A stretch of 32,660 nt of DNA from a virus (taxonomy: Duplodnaviria > Heunggongvirae > Uroviricota > Caudoviricetes > Peduoviridae). The position numbers were made by a program, and so were the translations under genes. A model generated the notes under the pieces. The model was given only the letters and a program-made list of their open reading frames with translations, was not told the origin of the DNA and did no database searches. This document shows, piece after piece, positions 20,484 to 26,109 of the stretch (its first letter is position 1; each line of letters opens with the position of its first letter). The DNA lies in the IMG/VR virus record IMGVR_UViG_2534682158_000021; one strand, 5' to 3'.

Positions 20484-23243
20484 ATGAGCACGAAATTTAA
20501 AACCGTTATCACTACTGCCGGAGCCGCGAAGCTGGCAGCCGCCACTGTCCCCGGCGGGAAAAAAGTAAACCTGTCTGCAATGGCCGTGGGTGACGGTAAT
20601 GGCAAATTGCCGGTGCCGGATGCCGGTCAGACGAAGCTGGTGCATGAGGTCTGGCGTCATGCCCTGAATAAAGTCAGCGTGGATAATAAGAATAAAAACT
20701 ATATCGTGGCTGAACTGGTTGTTCCGCCAGAAGTGGGCGGCTTCTGGATGCGTGAGCTTGGTCTGTATGACGATGCCGGAACACTGATTGCGGTATCCAA
20801 CATGGCAGAAAGCTATAAGCCAGAACTGGCTGAAGGCTCCGGACGTGCGCAGACCTGCCGCATGGTTATTATTCTCAGCAACGTGGCGTCCGTTGAGCTG
20901 AGTATTGATGCCAGCACAGTGATGGCGACGCAGGATTACGTCGATGACAAAATCGCAGAGCATGAGCAGTCCCGCCGCCATCCTGACGCCACGCTGACAG
21001 AAAAAGGTTTTACTCAGTTAAGCAGTGCAACAAACAGCACCAGTGAAAAGCAGGCTGCAACGCCAAAGGCAGTAAAAGCAGCCTATGACAATGCAGAGAA
21101 ACGTCTGCAGAAAGACCAGAACGGTGGCGATATTCCAGATAAGGACGCTTTTCTGGACAATGTTGGCGTTACCAGCCTGACGTTTATGAAAAACAATGTC
21201 GAAATGCCGCTTGATGCTGATCTGAATACATTTGGTCCCGTTAAGGCTTATCTGGGGATCTGGTCTAAAGCTACCTCAACTAACGCAACACTGGAGAAAA
21301 ATTTCCCGGAAGATAATGCTGTCGGTGTGCTTGAGGTTTTTGCTGCCGGCAATTTTGCAGGTACGCAACGCTTCACCACGAGAGACGGCAATGTATACAT
21401 ACGCAGACTCGCCAATAAGTGGAATGGCTCTGATGGTCCGTGGGGCATATGGCGTCACACTCAATCAGCTACCCGCCCTTTGAGTACGACTATAGACCTG
21501 AATACGCTTGGAGCCGCCGAACATCTTGGTTTATGGCGTAACAGTAGCTCGGCTATAGCTTCATATGAACGCAATTATCCAGAGGAAGGCGGCTTTGCTC
21601 AGGGGATGCTTGAGATCCTCGAAGGCGGAAATTATGGAAGAACGCAACGTTATACCACTCGCCGTGGAAATATGTATGTCCGCTGCCTTGCGGCAAGATG
21701 GGATGCATCAAATCCGCAGTGGGAACCGTGGTTAAGAGTCGGTCATCAGTCAGAGAGTCGTTATTACGAAGGTGATTTGAATGATGTAACCTCACCAGGT
21801 ATTTACAGCGTTACAGGTAAAGCGACCAACGGTCCAGTACTGGACGGAAACGGCGTGACTGTACTCGGCATTCTGGAAGTGTTGAGGCGGTTTGATGGTG
21901 TTAATGTATGGCAGCGTTATACAACTGCCGGAACAGGTACAACCCTTAAAGGCCGCACCTTTGAGCGCGTCTTTACCGGCAGCTCATGGAGCGAATGGCG
22001 GGAAGTCTACACCTCGTATTCACTTCCCCTGAATCTGGGTATCGGCGGTGCTGTGGCAAAGCTCACCAGCCTGGACTGGCAGACCTACGATTTTGTGCCG
22101 GGCAGTCTGATAACCGTTAGGCTGGATAATATGACCAATATTCCCGACGGTATGGACTGGGGCGTCATTGATGGCAACCTGATAAACATCGCAGTTGGTC
22201 CGAGTGATGATTCCGGTACGGGGCGCTCAATGCATGTATGGCGCAGCACTGTAAGTAAAGCGAACTACCGCTTTTTTATGGTGCGTATTTCAGGAAATCC
22301 GGGAAGCCGCACGATCACAGCAAGACGAGTACCAATCATTGACGAAGCCCAGACATGGGGCGCGAAACAGACATTCAGTGCTGGCCTTTCTGGTGAACTG
22401 TCCGGCAATGCGGCGACAGCAACAAAGCTGAAAACAGCCCGTAAAATTAATAACGTTTCGTTTGATGGAACATCAGATATTAACCTGACGCCGAAAAATA
22501 TTGGTGCATTTGCTTCAGGAAAAACAGGAGACACCGTTGCGAATGATAAAGCCGTTGGGTGGAACTGGAGTAGCGGAGCCTATAACGCAACTACTGGTGG
22601 GGCATCAACGTTAATTCTTCATTTTAATATCGGTGAAGGAAGTTGTCCCGCCGCCCAGTTCCGCGTTAATTATAAGAACGGCGGTATTTTTTATCGTTCT
22701 GCTCGTGACGGTTACGGATTCGAGGCTGACTGGTCTGAGTTTTATACCACAACGCGAAAACCTACAGCGGGAGATGTCGGTGCACTGCCGTTATCTGGTG
22801 GTCAATTGAATGGTGCTCTGGGTATAGGAACATCCAGTGCTCTTGGCGGTAATTCGATTGTTTTGGGTGATAATGACACGGGCTTTAAACAAAATGGTGA
22901 TGGTAATCTGGATGTTTATGCTAATAGCGTCCATATTATGCGTTTTGTCTCGGGAAGTATTCAAAGTAATAAAACCATAAATATTACGGGGCGTGTTAAT
23001 CCCTCGGATTACGGTAACTTTGATTCCCGCTATGTCCGGGATATCCGGCTTGGTGGTGCTGCCACATACAAACCTGCGAACAATGGCATGACATGGACAC
23101 ATCATGCACCGTCCGGGTGTGTATATTCCGGCATTATTGTTCAGGATACCGGCTCAAACTCTGCCGATAACATTGGTGGTGTATATTACAGGCCGGTTCA
23201 GAAATACATTAACGGGACATGGTATAACGTGGCGCAGGTATAA
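20484..23243 (+). CDS. H: Tail fibre protein H (enlarged, mosaic C-terminus)
   Basis: 919-aa ORF, longer than the ~669-aa P2 gpH as I remember it; N-terminal region is typical of the conserved tail-fibre anchor; three tandem ~85-aa repeats in the middle; glycine-rich divergent C-terminus. Confidence 0.88.
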   Translation: MSTKFKTVITTAGAAKLAAATVPGGKKVNLSAMAVGDGNGKLPVPDAGQTKLVHEVWRHALNKVSVDNKNKNYIVAELVVPPEVGGFWMRELGLYDDAGTLIAVSNMAESYKPELAEGSGRAQTCRMVIILSNVASVELSIDASTVMATQDYVDDKIAEHEQSRRHPDATLTEKGFTQLSSATNSTSEKQAATPKAVKAAYDNAEKRLQKDQNGGDIPDKDAFLDNVGVTSLTFMKNNVEMPLDADLNTFGPVKAYLGIWSKATSTNATLEKNFPEDNAVGVLEVFAAGNFAGTQRFTTRDGNVYIRRLANKWNGSDGPWGIWRHTQSATRPLSTTIDLNTLGAAEHLGLWRNSSSAIASYERNYPEEGGFAQGMLEILEGGNYGRTQRYTTRRGNMYVRCLAARWDASNPQWEPWLRVGHQSESRYYEGDLNDVTSPGIYSVTGKATNGPVLDGNGVTVLGILEVLRRFDGVNVWQRYTTAGTGTTLKGRTFERVFTGSSWSEWREVYTSYSLPLNLGIGGAVAKLTSLDWQTYDFVPGSLITVRLDNMTNIPDGMDWGVIDGNLINIAVGPSDDSGTGRSMHVWRSTVSKANYRFFMVRISGNPGSRTITARRVPIIDEAQTWGAKQTFSAGLSGELSGNAATATKLKTARKINNVSFDGTSDINLTPKNIGAFASGKTGDTVANDKAVGWNWSSGAYNATTGGASTLILHFNIGEGSCPAAQFRVNYKNGGIFYRSARDGYGFEADWSEFYTTTRKPTAGDVGALPLSGGQLNGALGIGTSSALGGNSIVLGDNDTGFKQNGDGNLDVYANSVHIMRFVSGSIQSNKTINITGRVNPSDYGNFDSRYVRDIRLGGAATYKPANNGMTWTHHAPSGCVYSGIIVQDTGSNSADNIGGVYYRPVQKYINGTWYNVAQV

Positions 23244-23246
23244 TTT

Positions 23247-23774
23247 ATGCAGCATTTAAAAAATATTACGGCGGGTAATCCAAAAACGGTTGAACAATAT
23301 CAATTGACAAAGGGTTTTGATGTTGTCTGGTTTTTTTCAGAAGATGGTAAGAACTGGTACGAAGAACAAAAGTATTTTGCTGATGACACGATAAAAATAG
23401 CGTACGACAAAGATAATATTATCCGCTATGTGGAAAAGGATGTGACAGCTATCAGACCGGATGGATTAAGTGTTGTTGAAGTGGCGGATATTACTGCTAA
23501 CCGACGGGCGGACATTTCAGGGGGCTGGATGTTTAAGGACGGCAAAGTGATTAAACGCATTTATACGGCAGAGGAATTGCTGCAGCAGGCAGAAAGCCGG
23601 AAAGCCAGACTTCTTGCAGATGCTGAATCCGTGATTTTGCCGCTGGAGCGCGCGGTCAGACTGAACATGGCAACAGATGAGGAGCGTAGCCGACTGGATG
23701 CATGGGAGCGTTACAGCGTTCTGGTCAGTCGTGTGGATCCTGCAAATCCTGAATGGCCGGAAATGCCGCAATAA
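23247..23774 (+). CDS. G: Tail fibre assembly chaperone G
   Basis: 175-aa ORF directly after H; size and position match P2 gpG. Confidence 0.85.
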
Positions 23775-23995
23775 GTTGTATGATCTCTGGAGTGAGCAAA
23801 CATATCTATGGCACAGAGTAAAGCCTAATCTGACAGGCCGCTCTGTGTCTGGAGTAGATTTTAGTAAAGCATTATTTTATTAGTGCAAATTCTAATCAAT
23901 ACATTTTATGTATATGATATCCTGCAGACTTTAATGACTTGGTTTAGGCTAACCAGATAACACTGAAGGAATATTTTTGATAATTAAGGTGCGGT

Positions 23996-24589
23996 ATGTT
24001 TACTAAGCGACGATTAAAAAATATTAACTGGGAGGCAAGTTCAGTGATACTTGCTATGGTTCTCTTTGTTGGAAATATATTTTATACAAATCATCGTGAT
24101 GATATAAGCATGGAGGCTGAGAGGGACAGTATCAGAACAATGTTTGCATATGAAATCGCTAATAACCATCGCGCTCTCACTTTTCTTGATAAAACGAGAT
24201 ATATTGGCTTTGACGAAAATTCGGAGCATTTTGTTGGCGAGCCTTTTGCCATTAATGTCAAATCATTAGGGGGGCCTCGCTTACAGATTGCATTAAACCA
24301 GACTGATAAAGTGTTTAAATCCTACTTCAGCGAATTAAGTAAGCTTGATAAAGAGGATGTTACTCTTCTTATGGACTATTACCATGAGCAAAGCATCCTG
24401 CTGGAGCGTGTAAAATCTACGTTACAGAAGATGAAAAGTGGTAATGATATTAAAGTTGATATTGATGGTTACTTATTAGAAGAACACTTCATGAATGAGC
24501 TTAATCTTTCTAATATTTTGCTTAAACGCTATAGCCATTTGTTGTCACAACACGCCAAAGAACATAAAACAAAAGATTTACATAATTGA
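23996..24589 (+). CDS. Uncharacterised cargo protein with N-terminal hydrophobic segment, in the G-FI (Z/fun) variable locus
   Basis: 197-aa ORF with AAGGTG Shine-Dalgarno about 8 nt upstream; strongly AT-rich compared with flanking G and FI; residues ~14-30 (SSVILAMVLFVGNIFY) look like a transmembrane helix; no recognisable catalytic motif. Confidence 0.6.
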   Translation: MFTKRRLKNINWEASSVILAMVLFVGNIFYTNHRDDISMEAERDSIRTMFAYEIANNHRALTFLDKTRYIGFDENSEHFVGEPFAINVKSLGGPRLQIALNQTDKVFKSYFSELSKLDKEDVTLLMDYYHEQSILLERVKSTLQKMKSGNDIKVDIDGYLLEEHFMNELNLSNILLKRYSHLLSQHAKEHKTKDLHN

Positions 24590-24795
24590 TAATCTGCTAA
24601 TGGTTATTCATGGGGTAACTATGTTTTATATGTAATCCAACTCAGATGAATTATTGATTCTGGATAATAACCGCAGAGCGGCATATATCCTGACAGGCAA
24701 ATGTCCGCTTCTTGTTCAAAGCAGACCGTCAGATTTGATAACTTTTGGGCTATGTAAATTGTCAGTCGGAAAATGAGTGAGTTCAAATCAGGACA

Positions 24796-24822
24796 GGCGG
24801 GCGAATTGCCCGCCTTTTCTTT
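24796..24822 (+). terminator. Intrinsic terminator upstream of FI
   Basis: ggcgggc-gaatt-gcccgcc stem-loop followed by ttttcttt. Confidence 0.55.
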
Positions 24823-24918
24823 ATCTGTTGTTTCATCCACTGACCAGCCAGGTCAAATAGCGTCTCATGCTCTGCACAACAGAAAATAGTTGCACCCATT
24901 AACCACGGAGTTAAACGG
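24823..24918 (+). promoter_or_regulatory. Probable late promoter region for the FI-FII-E-T-U-D operon
   Basis: Position between a terminator and FI; P2 has an Ogr-dependent late promoter here. I could not find an exact TGT-N12-ACA element by eye. Confidence 0.35.
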
Positions 24919-26109
24919 ATGAGTGACTATCATCACGGCGTGCAGGTGCTGGAGATTAACGACGGCACCCGCGTCATTTCCACCGTATCCACTGCCATTG
25001 TCGGCATGATCTGCACGGCCAGCGATGCGGATGCGGAAACCTTCCCCCTCAATAAACCTGTGCTGATTACCAATGTGCAGAGCGCAATTGCAAAGGCCGG
25101 TAAAAAAGGCACGCTGGCGGCATCGTTGCAGGCCATCGCAGACCAGTCAAAACCGGTCACCGTTGTCGTGCGCGTGGAAGACGGCACCGGTGATGACGAG
25201 GAAACGAAACTCGCGCAGACCGTTTCCAATATCATCGGCACCACCGACGAAAACGGCCAGTACACCGGACTGAAAGCCCTGCTGGCGGCAGAATCGGTAA
25301 CCGGTGTTAAACCGCGTATTCTCGGTGTGCCGGGACTGGACACCAAAGAGGTGGCCGTCGCACTGGCATCAGTCTGTCAGAAGCTGCGCGCTTTCGGGTA
25401 TATCAGCGCATGGGGCTGTAAAACCATTTCTGAGGTGAAAGCCTACCGCCAGAATTTCAGCCAGCGTGAGTTGATGGTCATCTGGCCTGATTTCCTCGCA
25501 TGGGATACGGTCACCAGTACCACCGCCACCGCGTATGCCACCGCCCGTGCGCTGGGTCTGCGTGCCAAAATCGACCAGGAGCAGGGCTGGCATAAAACGC
25601 TGTCCAACGTCGGGGTAAACGGTGTTACCGGCATCAGTGCCTCTGTATTCTGGGATTTGCAGGAGTCCGGCACCGATGCTGACCTGTTGAACGAGTCAGG
25701 TGTCACAACGCTGATTCGCCGTGACGGTTTCCGCTTCTGGGGTAACCGTACCTGCTCTGATGACCCGCTGTTCCTCTTTGAAAACTACACCCGCACCGCG
25801 CAGGTGCTGGCCGACACGATGGCTGAGGCGCACATGTGGGCGGTGGACAAGCCCATCACCGCAACGCTGATTCGCGACATCGTTGACGGTATCAATGCCA
25901 AATTCCGTGAGCTGAAAACAAACGGCTATATCGTGGATGCGACCTGCTGGTTCAGCGAAGAATCCAACGATGCGGAAACCCTCAAGGCCGGAAAACTGTA
26001 TATCGACTACGACTATACACCGGTGCCTCCTCTCGAAAACCTGACCCTGCGCCAGCGTATTACCGATAAATACCTGGCAAATCTGGTTACTTCGGTTAAC
26101 AGCAATTAA
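24919..26109 (+). CDS. FI: Contractile tail sheath protein FI
   Basis: 396-aa ORF; size and position match P2 gpFI. Confidence 0.93.
   Translation: MSDYHHGVQVLEINDGTRVISTVSTAIVGMICTASDADAETFPLNKPVLITNVQSAIAKAGKKGTLAASLQAIADQSKPVTVVVRVEDGTGDDEETKLAQTVSNIIGTTDENGQYTGLKALLAAESVTGVKPRILGVPGLDTKEVAVALASVCQKLRAFGYISAWGCKTISEVKAYRQNFSQRELMVIWPDFLAWDTVTSTTATAYATARALGLRAKIDQEQGWHKTLSNVGVNGVTGISASVFWDLQESGTDADLLNESGVTTLIRRDGFRFWGNRTCSDDPLFLFENYTRTAQVLADTMAEAHMWAVDKPITATLIRDIVDGINAKFRELKTNGYIVDATCWFSEESNDAETLKAGKLYIDYDYTPVPPLENLTLRQRITDKYLANLVTSVNSN

Follow-up and report, generated by a model that had tools for sequence, protein, structure and literature searches.

A solitary orphan gene in the G-FI hotspot of P2-like phages encodes a predicted membrane-anchored helical bundle and is a tentative candidate for phage exclusion

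Introduction

T4 Imm and Spackle, P22 SieA, HK97 gp15, lactococcal Sie2009 and S. thermophilus Ltp are small, single-gene products of phages and prophages that are tethered to the cytoplasmic membrane. These superinfection exclusion (Sie) proteins act on genome entry in or at the periplasm. Among P2-like phages, the interval between the tail-fibre assembly gene G and the tail sheath gene FI has been published as a second defence hotspot (PMC9519451, Vassallo 2022; bioRxiv 2024.10.15.618418). Three experimentally selected defence systems map to it (PMC9519451), and the hotspot studies note that many hotspot genes are hypothetical (PMC9519451; PMC9122126; NAR 2026 gkag898). Both the hotspot and the notion that defence cargo is swapped there were thus known before. 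Here we describe the cargo of one such locus, a gene for a 197-amino-acid (aa) protein, in a 32,660-nt stretch of DNA (IMG/VR record IMGVR_UViG_2534682158_000021; hereafter the window, meaning that whole stretch) that is a P2-like prophage. A first-pass annotation, made from the letters of the window, had taken the gene for uncharacterised AT-rich cargo and a candidate defence or exclusion gene. What is new is that this cargo is among the commoner ones, that it represents an orphan family and that the family roams phages, satellites, plasmids and conjugative elements.

Results

The 197-aa gene lies in an exchangeable cassette

The Pfam matches of the flanking genes, together with the P2 map, place the 197-aa open reading frame (ORF) between G and FI (Table 1). 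The P2 map puts fun(Z) in the same interval, a published hotspot (PMC9519451), and the first-pass assignment of the locus to the Z/fun site of P2 therefore stands. The order G-ORF-FI is also found in phage PhiR44_1, in whose annotation G is named GpG, and in E. coli M7424.

To locate the borders of the cargo, the interval was aligned with phage P2 and five E. coli prophages bearing other genes there. Homology to the P2 backbone ended at ~23857 on the left and restarted at ~24701 on the right. Six cargos occurred between the same junctions: fun(Z) (528 aa, minus strand), a 125-aa ORF, a 403-aa HNH endonuclease, a 360-aa SMEK protein, a 299-aa ORF and the 197-aa gene. Two of the alternative cargos have counterparts in defence databases, the HNH protein matching PADLOC candidate/effector models and the SMEK protein an Aga REase model. 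Overall, six loci with six cargos and common junctions demonstrate that cassettes are exchanged at this site, as had been predicted.

Both borders are formed by conserved backbone. The left one contains a hairpin at 23805-23852, GGCACAGAG...CTCTGTGTC, with a centroid fold of about -24 kcal/mol (z = -2.0), which is kept in P2 and in every G-FI locus examined, whichever cargo is present. It is not a canonical intrinsic terminator because the stem is not followed by a U-run and the terminator scan made no call; possible roles are the stabilisation of RNA and the anchoring of recombination. On the right, an intrinsic terminator hairpin was found at 24795-24815 (z = -3.3). The first-pass annotation was thus correct that a strong terminator precedes FI, but its attribution to the cargo did not hold: the hairpin lies in the conserved pF-promoter region of P2. 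According to the P2 alignment, ~24826-24851 is homologous to the annotated activator (Ogr) site for pF and ~24893 to the start of the F operon. As the terminator and the last ~220 bp are conserved in P2 relatives, they belong to the backbone, and the mobile unit is therefore the ~843-bp cassette. In PhiR44_1, the label 'FIG00643520 hypothetical protein' is given to a 38-aa ORF on the minus strand of this region (24783-24899); this ORF most probably reflects an error of annotation.

The gene is real and under purifying selection

The cassette differs from its surroundings in composition. The GC content of the ORF is 0.352, compared with 0.456 in G, 0.560 in FI and 0.519 in the window, while the upstream and downstream spacers, of 221 and 329 bp respectively, have values of 0.353 and 0.419. 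At third codon positions, GC content is 0.34 in the ORF and 0.67 in FI. The low GC content relative to the flanking structural genes, the non-coding flanks of about 220 and 330 bp and the single ORF with its own Shine-Dalgarno sequence, all read from the letters in the first pass, were each recovered by measurement. The block TTTTTGATAATTAAGG(T/A)G is kept in the Pantoea and Enterobacter homologues. The ORF starts with ATG, although some annotations begin at the GTG of codon 17 and yield a protein of 181 aa. The 197-aa reading is supported because N11, W12, E13, A14 and S16, which precede that GTG, are invariant across the family.

Comparison of the Escherichia, Salmonella, Pantoea and Kosakonia copies yielded a ratio of nonsynonymous to synonymous substitution rates (dN/dS) of 0.08-0.14 with saturated dS. 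Across 24 sequences, down to 53% identity, 41 columns were invariant. The low dN/dS at saturated synonymous sites indicates a real gene under strong purifying selection. This leaves a functionless ORF hitch-hiking in AT-rich filler DNA effectively refuted: the protein has no known domain, AT-rich DNA yields ORFs easily and unconserved ORFs overlap on both strands, but neither the dN/dS, the invariant columns nor the confident structure prediction described below would be expected of such an ORF.

Conservation extends upstream of the gene as well. The non-coding block at 23888-23923 is 83% conserved with respect to the Pantoea copy even though the synonymous sites of the gene are saturated. Within the block lie a -10-like TATGAT and a palindrome, ATACAT-TTT-ATGTAT. 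From its sequence, the block may be a native promoter or operator. A scan for the sigma-70 consensus did not call it; the sole match on the plus strand ended 12 nt before the ATG, overlapped the ribosome-binding-site region and was unconvincing.

The cassette is common and dispensable

Of 5426 complete E. coli genomes, ~1018 contained the right flank of the G-FI interval. Among these 1018, 201 carried the cassette in full (97-99.9% identity), always on the chromosome, so that about a fifth of the P2-like G-FI loci in such genomes bear it. It was also present in 13 phage records representing eight distinct Peduovirus phages: PhiR44_1, P24E6b, P24B2, P22H1, D8, 12W, SIDE7 (99.6% identity) and AC1 (96.8%). 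The exact 197-aa protein was encoded on 744 contigs. The gene is absent from P2 and from ~817 of the 1018 flank-sharing genomes, and viable phages exist with and without it. The 197-aa gene is thus a non-essential accessory (moron) gene. These counts also dispose of the idea that it encodes a conserved structural component of all P2-like phages, since P2 and ~80% of its relatives lack it.

The tail-fibre gene H encodes 919 aa in the window and in SIDE7 but 681 aa in AC1, and the downstream cassette is shared. Because the cassette occurs with both forms of H, a tie to one tail-fibre allele, as in a receptor-masking role, is unlikely. The C-terminal part of H and G (22400-23774) have a GC content of 0.41-0.46, below that of the rest of the tail operon. 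This low GC content and the difference in H length fit the published swapping of receptor-binding modules adjoining the hotspot (bioRxiv 2024.10.15.618418).

The protein belongs to a tiny orphan family

In profile searches, the sole match of the 197-aa protein was PHROG 3829 ('unknown function'), over its full length with an E value of 2e-137. Pfam and NCBIfam gave no match, PADLOC-DB 2.0 gave 0 families at E <= 10, and a profile of the family found nothing below E 0.16 among Protein Data Bank (PDB) sequences. None of these searches revealed an enzymatic or nucleotide-binding domain. The described Sie families (Imm, Sp, SieA, SieB, gp15, Cor and others) were not matched in Pfam, PHROGs or NCBIfam at permissive E values, and homology to P2 Fun(Z) was rejected (BLASTP E 3.3). 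The first-pass observation that the protein has no motif of a known family is upheld by the Pfam, NCBIfam, PADLOC and PDB-profile results. WP_000494502.1 is hypothetical in RefSeq, and the older NCBI label 'lysogenic conversion protein' appears to reflect its position only. Literature searches by accession, PHROG identifier and phage name found no study of the protein, which is also unnamed in the searchable texts of the P2/P4 hotspot defence studies.

The family comprised 38 clusters among 5.8 billion proteins. A profile search found 28 matches among 1.84 billion representatives, of which about ten were full-length distant relatives of 20-38% identity. The named sources of family members were all genera of the Enterobacterales. 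One further match, P0038 (European Nucleotide Archive; 165 aa, from a 1.6-kb contig), shared its last ~50 residues at 98% identity with the C-terminus of the query, covering 25% of it; its N-terminus was unrelated and contained PF14804. This match, probably a chimera of assembly, was set aside.

A predicted single-span membrane protein with a helical bundle

Hydropathy analysis identified an N-terminal hydrophobic helix at residues 12-31 with a Kyte-Doolittle maximum of 1.54. In a first AlphaFold2 (AF2) run, with 24 sequences, one of five models was good, with a mean predicted local distance difference test (pLDDT) score of 73.7. With 36 sequences, including distant relatives, all five models agreed, with pLDDT 79.5-83.2 and a predicted template modelling score of 0.71. 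In the model with pLDDT 83.2, a continuous helix spans residues 12-66, its first 20 residues being hydrophobic, and is followed by a loop with an invariant GEPFA and by helices 92-100, 105-116, 119-148 and 151-178, which pack as a compact bundle rather than an extended coiled coil. The nearest folds were membrane-tethered extracytoplasmic helical bundles, such as Borrelia Vsp/OspC, in matches that were not significant. The N-terminal transmembrane (TM) helix and the largely helical remainder expected from the first pass are therefore both seen, and the family is a tiny orphan one whose fold is confidently predicted yet cannot be assigned.

In each of the 23 members checked, the N-terminal tail had a net positive charge of at least +1, rising to +7 in distant relatives, whereas the stretch after the helix was neutral or acidic. 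The positive-inside rule then predicts an N-in/C-out topology, with the bundle in the periplasm. A CxxxxC pair occurs at the C-terminus in three distant relatives and in the loop in one; such pairs fit an oxidising periplasm. The hydrophobic segment is probably an uncleaved anchor, as it is long and contains no signal-peptidase motif. Within the TM region, N11, W12, E13, A14, S16, V17, A20, M21 and F24 are invariant. Because this sequence is conserved far beyond the needs of anchoring, it suggests that the helix makes a specific contact within the membrane.

Relatives travel alone on mobile elements

The family gene is always solitary, without a conserved partner. Its distinct contexts number more than 12, and almost all are mobile elements or small islands of inserted DNA. 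On P4-like satellites of Pantoea ananatis, Kosakonia sp. and K. oryzendophytica, it lies at the edge, where it immediately follows the primase gene. A Salmonella lambdoid prophage carries it at one end, after the tail-fibre genes and directly ahead of a type II methylase and restriction enzyme (PADLOC E about 1e-180). Other relatives occupy an AlpA island near Rhs toxins (Rhs/WHH toxin-immunity genes), an island with RadC and anti-restriction genes, an Enterobacter IncFII plasmid, a small resolvase/RepB element, an islet that splits a HAD hydrolase gene, and the inside of a TraU/TraG/TraC conjugative-transfer region. One is divergent from a Cap4 nuclease gene on a ParA contig. The concern that homologues might lie consistently outside mobile hotspots is thus answered by satellites, prophages, a plasmid, a tra region and islands. 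This distribution is the signature of portable accessory cargo, often in antiviral neighbourhoods.

Two of these neighbourhoods bear on possible partners. In locus L051 (5090-6657), a relative of 29% identity follows, at a distance of 38 nt and in the same orientation, a gene for a 290-aa TIR-domain protein beside an integrase. This pair may constitute a two-gene system of a TIR protein and a single-TM protein, seen in this one genomic context. Homology to the TIR-associated TM proteins of AC1, an idea raised by the TIR neighbour, was rejected by hhalign. In Proteus mirabilis ATCC 29906, an islet by ahpCF (L020, 3712-8591) encodes a 510-aa HD-domain protein with a weak match to a dGTPase model, a 471-aa putAbiC protein and, divergent from both, a relative of 30% identity. 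The islet looks like an uncharacterised defence islet.

Layout of the prophage and its other cargo

The prophage extends from int to ogr and abuts host fieF (Table 1). The same host genes are adjoined by a P2 remnant of E. coli (ogrK-fieF-pfkA; L016) and by an island of Salmonella (L005) in which a homologue of the 197-aa gene is accompanied by a type II restriction-modification (R-M) system. The other P2 hotspot, between gpA and Q, holds a cytolethal distending toxin (CDT) operon on the minus strand (5891-8033), with ORFs for a CdtC-like protein (181 aa), CdtB (269 aa, Exo_endo_phos) and a CdtA-like protein (258 aa). The region is 99.4-99.7% identical to the CDT-V regions of phage fiAA91-ss and of the prophage of E. 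coli O157:H43 T22 (KC618326). The 197-aa cassette is absent from both of these cdt phages, which rules out its linkage to the cdt cargo and indicates independent assortment at the two hotspots. Positions 8001-8600, between the cdt operon and Q, are extremely AT-rich (GC 0.30) with a strong positive GC skew. The cos site is expected near there, and fiAA91-ss is annotated with cosR under the matching region.

Table 1. Coordinates of the cassette, its gene and other features of the window
Feature	Position	Strand	Basis or remark
Exchangeable AT-rich cassette, ~843 bp	23858-24700	+	GC 0.34; junctions from six-locus alignments
197-aa ORF	23996-24589	+	PHROG 3829, WP_000494502.1; older NCBI name 'lysogenic conversion protein'
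Single predicted TM helix, WEASSVILAMVLFVGNIFYT, preceded by K/R-rich tail	24029-24088 (codons 12-31)	+	hydropathy, flank charges
Helical bundle, predicted periplasmic	24089-24586 (codons 32-197)	+	AF2 model, charge bias
Shine-Dalgarno AAGGTG	23986-23991	+	sequence; 4 nt before ATG
Conserved non-coding block, AATTCTAATCAATACATTTTATGTATATGATATCCT	23888-23923	+	30/36 identical to upstream region of Pantoea sp. homologue
Post-G spacer, left homology anchor, with hairpin 23805-23852	23775-23857	+	conserved in P2 and five E. coli loci with different cargos
P2 backbone, right homology anchor	24701-24918	+	common to ~1018 E. coli genomes and P2
Gene G, tail-fibre assembly; left conserved hotspot neighbour	23247-23774	+	PF02413 Caudo_TAP, E 4.6e-34
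Gene FI, tail sheath; right conserved hotspot neighbour	24919-26109	+	PF04984, PF17482, PF22671; sheath domains E 1e-33
int	1-1014	-	prophage left edge
gpA	3476-5815		
Portal gene Q	8812-9780	-	
Holin Y	15340		
LysC	16709		
Tail-fibre gene H	20484-23243		919 aa
ogr	31240-31521		prophage right end
Host fieF	from 31740		Cation_efflux and ZT_dimer

Discussion

We tentatively favour the hypothesis that the 197-aa protein excludes incoming phages at the level of the envelope, by superinfection or entry exclusion. The ~843-bp cassette would have been swapped into the G-FI hotspot by recombination between the conserved flanks and would be expressed in the lysogen. Its product would be a bitopic inner-membrane protein with a short K/R-rich tail in the cytoplasm and a conserved TM helix that runs on as a stalk into a compact helical bundle in the periplasm. 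The bundle, the TM helix or both could bind the genome-delivery component of an incoming phage, or a host inner-membrane factor that the phage uses, and this binding would block DNA entry. Exclusion is favoured because of the record of the hotspot and because such a function would be useful to any mobile element. It is also favoured because the solitary, enzyme-free and periplasm-facing build leaves little capacity for cytoplasmic sensing. A stronger form of the hypothesis, somewhat more doubtful, is that the family represents new single-gene, inner-membrane-anchored blockers of entry in the periplasm, traded in the Enterobacterales among P2-like phages, P4-like satellites, lambdoid prophages, plasmids and conjugative elements, with a fold and contacts unlike those of any described Sie protein.

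Several observations weigh against exclusion. When four P2-like lysogens of E. coli C, including AC1 and SIDE7, were challenged with eight phages (lambda, T4, P1, 186cIts, CLB_P2, LF82_P8, AL505_P2 and T7; T5 was not in the panel), only AC1 was protected (PMC9122126). That protection was reproduced by the cloned TIR system of AC1, which comes from its other hotspot (PMC9122126). The negative outcome for the SIDE7 lysogen is our reading of the paper's wording rather than a tabulated result, and we regard the absence of obvious protection by the cassette in AC1 and SIDE7 against this panel as mildly negative evidence. Sequence, profile and fold comparisons found no similarity to an annotated Sie protein, a PADLOC model or a solved structure. 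The topology is predicted from the positive-inside rule, and the charge bias is small in a few close members. No terminator was found by the scan between G and the ORF, so late read-through into the ORF is likely; the ORF is also co-directional with the late tail operon and could belong to the late genes instead of being expressed in the lysogen. Finally, since this prophage has a toxin operon, cdt-V, as cargo between gpA and Q, the prior for defence is not overwhelming.

The last point leads to an alternative that we place on the unlikely side but take seriously, lysogenic conversion unrelated to phage. To the advantage of the host or of the mobile element, the protein could guard against colicins, type VI secretion or other periplasm-acting toxins, act in conjugative entry exclusion or aid colonisation. 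With cdtABC in its other hotspot, the cargo of this prophage does include non-defence traits, and partition systems and CDT are among the described cargo of P2 hotspots (PMC9122126, Rousset 2022). The relative inside a tra cluster occupies a place typical of entry-exclusion genes, another lies near Rhs/WHH toxin-immunity genes, and the nearest, non-significant folds are surface-exposed bundles. The absence of protection against the eight-phage panel is likewise consistent with such a role. However, no similarity to known immunity, exclusion or virulence families was detected, and the P4-like satellites and the R-M, TIR, Cap4 and Abi neighbours suit antiviral islands better.

Less probable still is an abortive-infection or membrane effector. 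Such a protein would detect infection by itself or, in some genomes, with the help of a sensor encoded next to it, and would disturb the inner membrane through its conserved TM helix, killing or arresting the cell. Single-TM proteins are common as defence effectors (PMC9122126), and the unusual conservation of the intramembrane sequence would suit one, as would the relatives beside a TIR gene, a Cap4 nuclease gene and putAbiC. Yet the gene stands alone in most contexts and is paired with TIR in one locus only. Moreover, with the bundle predicted to be periplasmic, only ~10-25 cytoplasmic residues are left for sensing, and the protein is unrelated to the TM proteins that accompany TIR in AC1 and has no PADLOC match.

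We consider a late accessory function in the phage cycle, whether spanin-like, in lysis timing or as a helper of tail fibres or adsorption, to be very improbable. In its favour, the ORF has the orientation of the V-G late operon, no terminator separates it from G, and the first strong one follows it. The predicted N-in/C-out build, with a single TM helix and a helical domain in the periplasm, is also that of an i-spanin. Its absence from P2 and ~80% of relatives, and its presence on satellites, plasmids and islands without tail or lysis genes, argue against such a function, as do the occurrence of the cassette with different H alleles and the compact rather than extended coiled-coil form of the model. 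A spanin was specifically rejected: six homologous loci held no conserved alternate-frame lipobox ORF, whether overlapping or adjacent, and a holin and LysC are encoded elsewhere in the window.

If exclusion is correct, the cassette would be a common determinant of phage susceptibility in E. coli that is invisible to DefenseFinder- and PADLOC-style tools, which would matter for the prediction of host range in phage therapy. It would also provide a structurally new, envelope-level mechanism in a field where cytoplasmic systems that act on nucleic acids and abortive infection predominate. If the protein is not antiviral, it is still the product of a widespread lysogenic-conversion gene on a CDT-V toxin-converting prophage.

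Among known systems, the 4HB_MCP-type sensors (Tar/Tsr, PilJ, PcaY and MCP2201) are chemoreceptors and sensor kinases with a periplasmic four-helix bundle that binds ligands; the protein showed no significant profile or fold match to them and has neither a second TM helix nor a cytoplasmic signalling module. With the i-spanins lambda Rz and P2 LysB, it shares the predicted single-TM topology and a helical periplasmic domain of similar size; it differs in that the gene has no o-spanin partner, the prophage has its own LysC and relatives reside on elements without lysis genes. The defence systems of the fun hotspot (Vassallo 2022; Rousset 2022; NAR 2026 gkag898) share its location and the logic of cassette swapping, whereas the 197-aa protein has no PADLOC 2.0 model. 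The predicted topology and the lack of an enzymatic domain fit the pattern of the Sie membrane proteins, but neither the Sie families annotated in PHROGs and Pfam nor any known fold gave a match. P2 Fun(Z) differs in size, strand and sequence, and T5 exclusion is known for Fun(Z) only, not for the 197-aa protein. Like the 197-aa gene, however, fun(Z) encodes a protein without a Pfam domain, is AT-rich and non-essential, lies in the G-FI interval between the same conserved flanks and is annotated in P2 as a gene of lysogenic conversion.

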